Positions 3,713 through 4,475 of a DNA stretch of 64,000 nucleotides are shown here, piece by piece. The notes under the pieces were generated by a model, which saw only the letters and a list, made by a program, of their open reading frames with translations, was not told the DNA's origin and did no database searches. The position numbers were made by a program, and so were the translations under genes. The stretch's first letter is position 1, and the number at the start of each line of letters is the position of its first letter. Source of the stretch: Escherichia phage S127 BCL3. The stretch lies in sequence record OQ626344; one strand, written 5' to 3'.

Positions 3713-3740
3713 TTGACATTCTTGCCTATCTTGATAAAAT
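3713..3740 (+). promoter_or_regulatory. sigma70-like promoter directed into non-coding DNA
   Basis: TTGACA - 16 nt - TAAAAT; no credible ORF downstream for about 2.4 kb. Confidence 0.4.
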
Positions 3741-3935
3741 TAAGTTCTTCTCTTTTCTTTTACCGAGTAATTCGGGTTTTCTGTTCTCTTCGGTTTGAAG
3801 GGGTATGGAGATACACCTGAGTGAACAGGGTGAACAACCGAACCTTTAGCTATGGCATTAGCATGGCGAAGCGGACGGGTGACGAAAGAGGGGCCGGAGG
3901 ACACCAGTCACTGCCATATAGTATATGGGTGATAA

Positions 3936-4475
3936 CCTGAAGAGTCTGAATAAGTGTTTAAGTACCAGTCAGAGGAAAAGGTGAATGGTAGCCGAAGGGG
4001 GAGGGGGGTTTCTTATATCTTTAATTTGTATACTTTATATACACTTGTAAACCAATTCAATTAGGATCTGTTTACCACACAAAGTGGATGGAGACAAATA
4101 TCACCTATTAAACTTGAATTATTTATAGAAAATACCACAACACCACTTAAGTATTTGATTTTACACACAAATCTTACAAATATCCTACCTCCATATTTAA
4201 CATACTTGTAACATATCCCATATCCTACCTGCCTGGTCAATTTACTCCCACCACATCCCCACATTTTCCCTGTCTGTACTACCCCACCCCCGCCGGGAGT
4301 CCCGTCATATCTGGCTTCCCAGCAAATATCACACCCACAAATATCATCACCTGAAGAGGGTTTCATCCCATAATACACACCTTGCCTGAAGAGCGCTTCA
4401 TACACCACCTAAATTTTTTAATTGACCCCTCCCCGCCGCCGGAGAGGTTGGCTTTTCCCACACAGGCCTGAAGAG
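3936..4475. repeat. dispersed 9-mer CCTGAAGAG, four copies (3936, 4350, 4385, 4467)
   Basis: Exact 9-mer four times in 540 bp of non-coding DNA. Confidence 0.7.

Follow-up and report, generated by a model that had tools for sequence, protein, structure and literature searches.

A putative gene-less, non-coding transcription unit pointing at the right terminal repeat of rV5-like coliphages

The primary origin of phage T7, its promoters phiOL and phiOR near the genome ends, and oriF and oriG of phage T4 are built alike: a promoter that is dispensable for mRNA is followed by AT-rich DNA. In T7, phiOR is directed toward the right terminal repeat, which begins a few hundred base pairs downstream. 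A related strategy is found in ColE1, where G-runs in RNA II promote a persistent RNA:DNA hybrid. Origins primed from R-loops are established for ColE1, in which RNA II has this role, for T4, and for mitochondrial DNA (PMC5333043). In human mitochondria the element concerned is CSB II, with the sequence GGGGGAGGGGGGGTTTG (PMC4176368), at which transcription terminates and the primer for replication is generated (PMC4176368, PMC3488243, PMC5027508); termination of this type has been demonstrated with both the mitochondrial and the T7 RNA polymerases (PMC4176368). Here we describe a locus in Vequintavirus phages that shares features with each of these systems. A near-perfect promoter, followed by some 265 non-coding bases that are almost unchanged in ~118 phages, makes it very probable, as far as comparison of genomes can tell, that the locus is a self-contained, gene-less and previously undescribed non-coding transcription unit.

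The window analyzed, a 64-kb stretch of DNA, belongs to the genome of a Vequintavirus (rV5-like) phage of E. coli. It has a single large non-coding gap (3573-6131), flanked by convergent operons, and it is within this gap that the unit is found. The same gap contains a 459-bp direct terminal repeat (4578-5036), which defines the physical genome ends: both the repeat_region annotated in phage Gotham and the repeat called by PhageTerm in phage LL12 map to precisely this interval. The unit is located near the right end of the genome, points toward the terminal repeat and ends 567 bp upstream of it; no terminator was found between the two. DNA immediately outside the repeat borders is hypervariable among the relatives compared. 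Elsewhere in the gap, at 5176-5690, there are repeats and an AT-rich stretch that are also origin-like in appearance. Across 3006-9532 there is not one DnaA box (TTATCCACA, allowing a single mismatch), and thus no sign of a DnaA-dependent origin; a search with ARAGORN returned neither tRNA nor tmRNA. The paper describing the type phage rV5 marks the region only as 'non-coding', lists no promoter in it and lists no terminator after gene 163, and our search of the literature on rV5-like phages found no report of a transcriptome or of a non-coding RNA.

Details of the promoter are as follows. On the forward strand TTGACA (3713-3718) and TAAAAT (3735-3740) are separated by a 16-nt spacer, and a TG at 3732-3733 extends the -10 element to TGaTAAAAT (3732-3740). 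The resulting sigma-70 promoter (3713-3740) agrees with the consensus at 11 of 12 positions in addition to the TG, so that the original prediction, which had placed TTGACA-16-TAAAAT at 3713-3740, was correct as to coordinates and concerned a match that lies above chance. Sites of at least 11/12 are 11-fold enriched in the window as a whole (18 compared to 1.6 expected), and those that also carry the TG are enriched ~50-fold (4 compared to 0.075 expected in the 128 kb scanned); all matches of at least 11/12 are found on the same strand as the local genes. No antisense promoter inside the unit reaches 9/12.

Of particular value is a comparison with UViG 3300010279. Scans of IMG/VR and of metagenomes added a handful of loci, among which only the lineage of this genome clearly exceeds the divergence seen in GenBank. 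Its promoter spacer carries eight substitutions and a 2-nt insertion (lengthening it from 16 to 18 nt), but despite this rewriting the -35 element, the TG and the -10 element are identical. Three further substitutions fall in the discriminator (3741, 3745 and 3746), and just two differences are found over the whole of 3747-4010. The hexamers, 16-18 nt apart and matching above chance, are therefore kept selectively relative to the spacer that separates them, as befits a sigma-70 transcription unit. Transcription is predicted to start on the forward strand at 3747 (+/- 1 nt), 7 nt past the -10 element, which is where conservation of this relative resumes.

The promoter and the sequence that follows it form part of a conserved block (3676-4010) that is among the least variable stretches of the 7.8 kb compared around the genome end. 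Nucleotide diversity over 3701-4000 is 0.011-0.020, among the lowest values in those 7.8 kb. Variable sites make up 4% of the predicted transcript (10/250), approximately 30% of the adjoining non-coding DNA (31/103, 65/190 and 115/377) and 14-34% of the neighboring genes. A segment of 266 nt is present at 97.7-100% identity in ~118 GenBank genomes that span many countries and years; over the 1.1 kb around it, identity is for the most part 90-95%. The body contains two small variable hot spots, at 3843-3848 and 3920-3922, and in the LL12 lineage divergence starts right after GGGGGGTT. The left part of the block, directly upstream of the -35 element, is taken up by a 13-bp RNA hairpin on the forward strand (AUGACUGUUUGCU / AGUGAGCAGUCAU, 3679-3709, three G.U pairs), with a predicted energy of -16 kcal/mol (z -3.26) that none of 200 shuffles equalled. 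Its pairing is retained as G.U in the variants A3679G and A3682G, and the upstream early operon probably has its 3′ end, or a stabilizer, in this hairpin.

The distribution of the unit is narrow. A blastn search in 'distant' mode (E <=10) returned only Vequintavirus copies of at least 97.7% identity, there was no match to the unit in 5,426 E. coli genomes, and the sole plasmid match turned out to be a mislabelled phage genome. In phAPEC8, LTH01 and A7_1 the corresponding gaps, located via a shared flanking gene, contain neither similar sequence nor an equivalent strong promoter. Absence from these sister genera, which share the flanking gene, shows that the unit is not a universal need of this replication machinery. 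A G5AG5AG5 run in LTH01 and A7_1 was considered as a homologue of the G-run described below and dropped: it aligns elsewhere, near the repeat border.

A recent recombinational sweep of the DNA segment would also produce low diversity, in which case the promoter match would be incidental. The sharp boundaries of the block are in keeping with this, as is the mosaic nature of Vequintavirus genomes, with their hypervariable patches nearby; nonetheless we think a sweep very improbable. In the most divergent relative, changes are confined to the spacer of the promoter and to the 6 nt preceding the start, with hexamers and predicted transcript preserved: variation so limited indicates a functional footprint and not a block transfer. 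Moreover, the block is at least 97.7% identical in each one of the ~118 genomes, scattered as these are in place and time, and a site of 11/12 plus TG is expected by chance only ~0.075 times in the 128 kb scanned. It is likewise hard to credit that the constraint serves one or more micro-proteins, with the promoter an ordinary gene promoter. Candidate reading frames, such as GTG 3821-3940 (39 aa) and ATG 3852-3932 (26 aa), are present and open in all relatives; a GGAG precedes GTG 3821 by 10 nt; the stop is preserved in the G3939A variant (TGA to TAA); and a handful of GenBank entries carry hypothetical proteins at this place, although the majority of the 118 are without any annotation there. 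However, reading frames in the unit do not exceed 40 aa on the forward and 54 aa on the reverse strand, and a PHROGs search with five candidates gave no match. Variable sites are spread over the three codon positions of the candidates as 3:3:3 or 1:2:1, that is, without periodicity, whereas the neighboring genes show a strong third-position excess (9:4:32, 2:1:41 and 6:3:34). All remaining third positions are invariant, which places the constraint at the level of nucleotides rather than amino acids. The variant G3807A abolishes one candidate ATG, and GTG 3821, together with its GGAG, is predicted to be buried within a stable hairpin. A 115-aa frame on the reverse strand (4061-4408) was rejected, being open in this window only and broken in 17 relatives. 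The region beyond the promoter had been described as lacking a plausible ORF, and this is confirmed: the frames are short, match no PHROG and show no excess of third-position change. With hexamers kept through a rewritten spacer, and with nucleotide constraint of a non-codon kind over 3747-4010, comparative data lend good support to the core of the original prediction, namely that this is a gene-less promoter for a putative non-coding RNA.

The composition of the unit is unusual, but not quite in the manner first supposed. The segment had been called markedly more GC-rich than its surroundings, a description that suits the body at 3797-4008 (51.4% GC, the 98.6th percentile, with flanks at 41.6% and 32.9%) better than the interval 3770-3960, which at 48.2% GC (window, 43.8%) is at the 86th percentile. 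The real compositional signal is richness in purine and in G. The body of the predicted transcript (3797-4008, forward strand) is 67% purine and 36% G, with a GC skew of +0.28 to +0.46, and 3808-4007 ties for the top purine fraction in the window. For the same 200 nt the hybrid-minus-duplex energy, estimated with nearest-neighbor parameters, is -36.7 kcal/mol: ~4.5 sd below the mean and first on the forward strand of the 64 kb. One copy of the motif CCTGAAGAG lies within the body (3936-3944, forward strand). There are five copies in all, between 3276 and 4475, every one of them non-coding and on the forward strand, with conserved cores and variable flanks.

On the 3′ side, conservation ends exactly at a G5AG6TTT block (3997-4011, forward strand), the sole compound G-run on either strand of the 64 kb. 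From relative to relative the length of its runs changes (G4-7 A G5-8), the interrupting A being present in all instances, and G5AG6TT matches human mitochondrial CSB II. Immediately after the G-run comes an AT-rich stretch (4012-4214), which is a candidate DNA-unwinding region: 4009-4200 is 74% A+T and only 8% G, and no 200-bp window in the 64 kb has a lower GC content than 4015-4214 (27%).

The arrangement recalls the human mitochondrial LSP-CSB II system, in which a gene-less promoter also fires into DNA with a G-rich non-template strand. Like CSB II (PMC4176368), the phage unit ends in a G-run followed by a T stretch (G5AG6TTT), and like those of CSB II (PMC5027508) its G-runs differ in length between genomes. 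There are also clear differences: the phage promoter is of the type used by the multi-subunit sigma-70 RNA polymerase of the host, and not by a single-subunit enzyme; ~250 nt lie between promoter and G-run; and CSB I and CSB III have no counterparts. The likeness of the phage block to CSB II is that of a short sequence motif, and a match so short is to be seen as convergent or coincidental, not homologous.

Secondary structure predictions show a 5′ region that is better folded than the remainder. The 5′ leader (3747-3796) is 76% pyrimidine. It opens with a CU-rich tail (3747-3758), for which the predicted consensus fold offers the 3′ G-run as a partner: alignment columns 2-14 pair with columns 252-264, without covariation. 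Next is an extended 76-nt hairpin (3759-3834) in which a pyrimidine arm is predicted to pair with a purine arm, with eight G.U pairs and pair probabilities above 0.85; inside it is a weak, terminator-like mini-hairpin (3763-3775), and the variant G3807A replaces a G.U by an A-U pair. The 80 nt at 3757-3836 have a predicted energy of -29.3 kcal/mol, with z -3.59 on the forward strand and -2.49 on the reverse. Thus the short complementary stretches that had been reported find an equivalent in this hairpin but do not extend to the whole 284 nt, the folding of which (z -1.19) is no better than that of shuffles; the 3′ domain gives z -1.83. Variable sites at 3848, 3920-3922, 3939 and 3942 are predicted to be unpaired, and 3844 and 3845 belong to a low-confidence helix. 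Compensatory two-sided change is seen in none of the 86 predicted pairs (covariation term, -0.17 kcal/mol), but just ~13 of ~265 positions vary, so that the covariance test has no power and its outcome does not count against structure. The Rfam search, which had been proposed along with it, was empty: none of the 4227 models of Rfam 15 matched the window at gathering score, and at E <=10 the interval 3600-4200 yielded only two hits of chance level (mir-994 and sR1). By the standards of refutation attached to the original prediction, the overall outcome is mixed. The 3′ end does not resemble the GC-rich hairpin plus U tract of a classical sRNA: there is no canonical terminator at 3980-4040, and the folding of 3985-4060 is poorer than that of shuffled sequence (z +1.8). 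Long-range pairing between the 5′ CU tail and the G-run is the only option. The original suggestion of a small RNA is not specifically supported if a trans-acting regulator is meant; a cis role as R-loop or primer agrees at least as well with the composition, the CSB II-like G-run and the AT-rich DNA behind it.

The mechanism we prefer, and put forward tentatively, is that the RNA would serve a replication origin in cis, as an R-loop or primer. Host sigma-70 RNA polymerase would bind 3713-3740 and initiate at ~3747, giving a non-coding RNA of ~260 nt that would consist of the CU-rich 5′ tail, the 76-nt hairpin (3759-3834) and a purine-rich body of ~210 nt. The G5AG6TT(T) block (3997-4011) would be the end of the functional unit. 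The purine-rich RNA may act in cis by staying on its template as an R-loop, and the G-run may stall or end transcription in the way that mitochondrial CSB II does. Either the 3′ end of the RNA or the displaced strand by the AT-rich DNA (4012-4214) would then prime or open the DNA for phage replication, along the lines of ColE1 RNA II, T4 oriF/oriG, the T7 origins and mitochondrial LSP-CSB II. The elements of a transcription-primed origin are present in the sequence: a gene-less promoter, a purine-rich, hybrid-favoring strand with a G-run, and adjacent AT-rich DNA. Several considerations point the other way. Near-total conservation of all 264 nt exceeds what a simple R-loop needs, and an RNA with a specific partner would fit it; promoter and AT-rich DNA are closer together in the T4 and T7 origins than the ~265 nt seen here; and the other origin-like features of the gap (5176-5690) speak against an origin at the unit itself, as does the absence of the unit from sister genera. 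A more specific version, which we consider rather unlikely, is a mitochondrion-like origin: RNA made by the host polymerase would be stopped at G5AG6T3 by a hybrid RNA:DNA G-quadruplex and its 3′ end would prime the leading strand into the adjoining AT-rich DNA beside the terminal repeat. We know of no demonstration of CSB II-type termination for E. coli RNA polymerase.

The RNA might instead leave the template and act in trans. It is possible, though doubtful, that a phage ncRNA of ~260 nt has a protein or RNA of host or phage as its partner and works as decoy, sponge, regulator or RNP component; the G-run and U stretch, perhaps with the CU-rich 5′ tail paired to them, would then set its 3′ end. 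The evidence from promoter and constraint serves this reading as well as the cis one, non-coding RNAs from gene-less early promoters are common in phage transcriptomes, and conservation of nearly every nucleotide would suit a specific macromolecular partner. The predictions are partly favorable: the 5′ hairpin is stable (z -3.59), the variable sites 3848, 3920-3922, 3939 and 3942 are unpaired, G3807A leaves its pair intact, and variants in G-run length would be tolerated by the 5′-3′ closing helix. However, folding of the RNA as a whole does not surpass that of shuffles (z -1.19), the 86 predicted pairs include none with compensatory change, Rfam offers no family even with E relaxed to 10, a terminator hairpin is lacking from a 3′ region that is less structured than random (z +1.8), and no similarity to E. 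coli sequence hints at a target or mimic. A trans-acting RNA also leaves unexplained why the unit should be bounded by the extreme R-loop-prone and AT-rich segments of the window. The position of the unit might suggest another role, that of a cis element in DNA maturation and packaging, whereby transcription toward the repeat, or a protein on the block (including CCTGAAGAG), would aid terminase in finding or processing the concatemer junction. A precedent is set in T7, where phiOR and the pacB region precede the right genome end, and the unit is similarly aimed at the right terminal repeat from 567 bp away with no terminator before it; the five forward-strand copies of CCTGAAGAG in non-coding 3276-4475, with cores conserved and flanks variable, could be the binding sites. 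Even so, we judge this improbable: the conserved block has an abrupt end at 4010, a long way short of the repeat border, and hypervariable DNA lies just beyond the repeat borders. An array of protein-binding sites would not constrain all 264 nt, and a need for transcription through the repeat would not by itself constrain the transcribed sequence.

For the preferred reading, a cis-acting R-loop or primer, ColE1 RNA II is an instructive parallel: it too has a host sigma-70 promoter, a non-coding RNA of several hundred nucleotides and a 5′ stem-loop structure. In contrast to RNA II, the phage unit has no sequence or Rfam similarity to it, lacks an RNA I-type antisense promoter on the reverse strand, would produce an RNA of ~260 nt rather than ~550 nt, and belongs to a genome that is linear and terminally repeated. 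With the T7 and T4 origins the unit shares a promoter that serves no mRNA, AT-rich DNA downstream and, in the case of phiOR, an orientation toward the right terminal repeat from a few hundred base pairs upstream. Polymerase use sets them apart, since T7 employs its own RNA polymerase and T4 its MotA-dependent middle promoters, whereas the unit has a plain sigma-70 promoter. Furthermore, the AT-rich element of T7 and T4 is close behind the promoter; in the phage unit a 264-nt ultraconserved transcribed segment lies between. The phi29 pRNA and other phage ncRNAs offer a further comparison: like them, the unit would be a discrete, protein-free gene with a strong early host-type promoter near the genome end. 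Unlike phi29 pRNA, it matches no pRNA or other Rfam model and no compact conserved fold is evident in it (z -1.19; 0/86 pairs), and genome-end chemistry and packaging motor differ between the two phages.

Phages of the rV5 type are used in therapeutic and biocontrol products. They also rank with the coliphages that are isolated most frequently, as in the BASEL collection (PMC8594841). The unit is an overlooked element of these phages, with an origin, an aid to packaging and a regulatory RNA as its candidate functions; it is a concrete and easily mutated target, and one that phage genome engineering should avoid or exploit. If it were indeed a mitochondrion-like origin, then the origin of rV5-like phages would have been located, and G-quadruplex-mediated termination and primer formation would be the work of a bacterial multi-subunit polymerase.

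The window is the genome of a Vequintavirus (an rV5-like E. coli myophage); over 3500-4600 it shares 98.7% identity with phage ECP32, and this stretch was found in 120 phage records. The element lies in a gene-less gap of 2.56 kb (3573-6131), the only large non-coding region of the genome, where two gene blocks converge: that on the + strand closes with rV5 gp158, which ends at 3572, and the other side is bordered by rV5 gp159 (6132-6551, - strand), after which a strong terminator follows (6113-6094). The gap also holds the physical genome ends, a 459-bp direct terminal repeat at 4578-5036, to which two independent annotations map: the repeat_region of Gotham and LL12's published 459-bp PhageTerm repeat. 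The repeat itself is ordinary in diversity (0.05-0.09); the DNA directly outside both borders (4501-4600, 5001-5300) is hypervariable and indel-rich (0.3-0.4). In the rV5 paper the region is drawn as a 'non-coding' box, and neither a promoter nor a + strand terminator is listed there. About 18 'Campylobacter phage' GenBank records (MG0656xx; at least one marked UNVERIFIED) and a 137.6-kb E. coli 'plasmid' record (CP057073.1) are Vequintavirus genomes with the element.

The sigma-70 promoter from which a non-coding RNA had been proposed to arise stands just as described, on the + strand at 3713-3740: TTGACA (3713-3718), a 16-nt spacer and TAAAAT (3735-3740), with an extended -10 TG in addition. 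The window holds 18 sites with at least 11 of 12 matches (1.6 expected) and four that combine this with TG (0.075 expected). The phage makes use of many near-consensus sigma-70 promoters, and because such sites are enriched an accidental origin of an 11/12 site with TG is unlikely. In the most divergent relative, the IMG/VR metagenomic genome UViG 3300010279 (flanking protein 89% identical), 8 substitutions and 2 inserted nucleotides have remodelled the spacer, which is 18 nt long instead of 16, and changes are found at 3741, 3745 and 3746 too. The -35 hexamer, the TG and the -10 hexamer are unchanged, and only 2 differences occur from 3747 up to 4010, as would be expected if the promoter works and selection also acts on its transcript, with a start near 3747.

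Nucleotide diversity per 100 nt was computed from an alignment of the window and 17 relatives over 7.8 kb. Across 3701-4000 it is 0.011-0.020, including the lowest value of the 7.8 kb, and in the flanking genes 0.04-0.12. Of the 250 sites of the putative transcript (3747-3996), ten are variable, as compared with 31/103, 65/190 and 115/377 in adjoining non-coding DNA and 14-34% in neighbouring genes. The conserved block extends from about 3676 to 4010; 266 nt are carried by about 118 GenBank genomes at 97.7-100% identity, most of them without annotation at the element.

Conservation ends at GGGGGAGGGGGGTT(T), 3997-4011, the sole compound G-run on either strand of the 64 kb; the LL12 lineage departs directly after GGGGGGTT. 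G-run lengths differ among relatives (G4-7 A G5-8), the interrupting A being kept in every case. The run is that of human mitochondrial CSB II (GGGGGAGGGGGGGTTTG) less one G, and length variation is common to both. Transcription is halted at CSB II by a G-quadruplex of RNA or of RNA:DNA hybrid; CSB II also stabilises an R-loop and gives rise to a replication primer. It is length-polymorphic, with 3′ ends set by its downstream T tract (PMC4176368, PMC3488243, PMC5027508). A G5AG5AG5 run is present in the homologous non-coding gaps of two other Vequintavirinae, LTH01 (locus L005, about 6480-6510) and A7_1 (locus L006, about 6760-6790), on the - strand of each locus; its counterpart in the alignment is window 4560-4600, close to the border of the terminal repeat, and not the G-run at 3997.

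The segment had been described as GC-rich, which holds only moderately: 3770-3960 is 48% GC (86th percentile) and 3797-4008 is 51% (98.6th percentile). Strand asymmetry is the stronger signal. Positions 3747-3796 are 76% pyrimidine, 3797-4008 are 67% purine (36% G), 4009-4200 are 74% A+T and 4201-4480 are 36% C. By a nearest-neighbour estimate, the 200 nt upstream of the G-run have an RNA:DNA-hybrid-minus-duplex energy of -36.7 kcal/mol, the most favourable on the window's + strand (about 4.5 sd below the mean); the 200 bp downstream, at 27% GC, are the window's most AT-rich. Within the C-rich stretch 4201-4480 the GC skew reaches its extreme for the 64 kb (-0.71); CAAATATC and ATATCCTACCT motifs recur there, and its hybrid preference as - strand matches that of 3808-4007 as + strand. 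The AT-rich 4012-4214 would thus be approached from both sides by a G-rich-RNA segment; for 4201-4480, the search for a driving promoter on the - strand gave no good candidate.

Folding of the full-length transcript is no better than that of shuffled sequences (z -1.19; - strand, z -0.27). A long 5′ hairpin is predicted at 3759-3834 on the + strand (dG -29.3 kcal/mol, z -3.59), and its eight G.U pairs make it specific to the + strand RNA. Variable sites 3848, 3920-3922, 3939 and 3942 fall at predicted unpaired positions, and G3807A turns a predicted G.U pair into A-U; compensatory changes affect none of 86 predicted pairs, with so little variation that the test lacks power. The CU-rich 5′ tail is the only pairing partner open to the G-run in the predicted fold. 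No hairpin forms at the 3′ end (z +1.8 against shuffles), which therefore lacks a canonical terminator. Abutting the -35 just upstream, a 13-bp RNA hairpin (3679-3709; z -3.26, three G.U pairs), in which two A-to-G variants stay paired as G.U, probably closes the upstream early operon, itself without a canonical terminator.

The best-supported reading of these sequence patterns is that the element is, very likely, a dedicated non-coding transcription unit; the non-coding RNA interpretation is partly supported. That a micro-protein is encoded instead is highly improbable. None of the candidate ORFs, three on the + strand (39, 26 and 36 aa) and one of 54 aa on the - strand, matched a PHROG family, and their variable sites fall on codon positions 3:3:3 or 1:2:1 (2:1:41, 6:3:34 and 9:4:32 in real neighbouring genes). 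Variant G3807A removes one candidate ATG, and the GTG at 3821 is buried, with its GGAG, inside a predicted stable hairpin. A 115-aa - strand ORF (4061-4408), open in the window only, was rejected as a gene because stops or frameshifts interrupt it in 17 relatives; short proteins labelled hypothetical or 'structural' are annotated there in some GenBank records. A non-functional sweep is just as improbable, and the UViG 3300010279 promoter footprint argues against a recent block transfer.

As to role, our tentative preference is that the purine-rich RNA would act in cis, as the R-loop or primer of a replication origin, after the manner of ColE1 RNA II, the T4/T7 origins and mitochondrial LSP-CSB II (PMC5333043). 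This reading alone explains three coincidences, all inside the sole large non-coding region: an extreme hybrid-prone segment, a G-run exactly at the conservation edge without a terminator, and an extreme AT-rich segment. The main rival, an RNA that works in trans with a specific partner, better accounts for the near-total fixation of nucleotides, and is possible if somewhat doubtful. A packaging or terminus role of the T7 phiOR type is unlikely. No transcriptome of the rV5-like group was found in the literature.

Repeats also occur in the region. CCTGAAGAG is found five times in 1.2 kb (3276-3284, 3936-3944, 4350-4358, 4385-4393, 4467-4475), always on the + strand and in non-coding DNA, and seven times in the whole window (0.63 expected). 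Its cores are kept among the 18 genomes while flanking bases vary, and LTH01 and A7_1 also carry CCT[GA]AAGAG in their corresponding gaps; the motif may be bound by a protein such as terminase or a replication initiator. On the left-end side of the gap, repeats of several kinds lie within 5176-5690: 20 nt recur without mismatch as a direct repeat at 5176 and 5450, CAAGGCAACTAT appears four times between 5297 and 5485, with both orientations represented, and 18 nt at 5285 and 5419 form an exact inverted repeat. From 5477 the DNA is for a second time very AT-rich, with 24% GC over 100 bp; the 200 bp that start at 5491 are 28% GC. The region is iteron-like, and is an alternative candidate origin or regulatory region.

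Searches of Rfam, for tRNAs, and against E. coli genomes, plasmids and other phage genera returned no match to the element. The sister groups with gp159 (phAPEC8, LTH01, A7_1) have a gap of comparable size, in which neither homologous sequence nor a comparable promoter was found. The observation behind the original prediction was largely right. The element is real, is specific to the genus and had not been described. It is of a kind with known systems, a phage non-coding RNA or a transcription-primed origin, yet belongs to no family; its CSB II-like end is unusual, and it is open to direct test.
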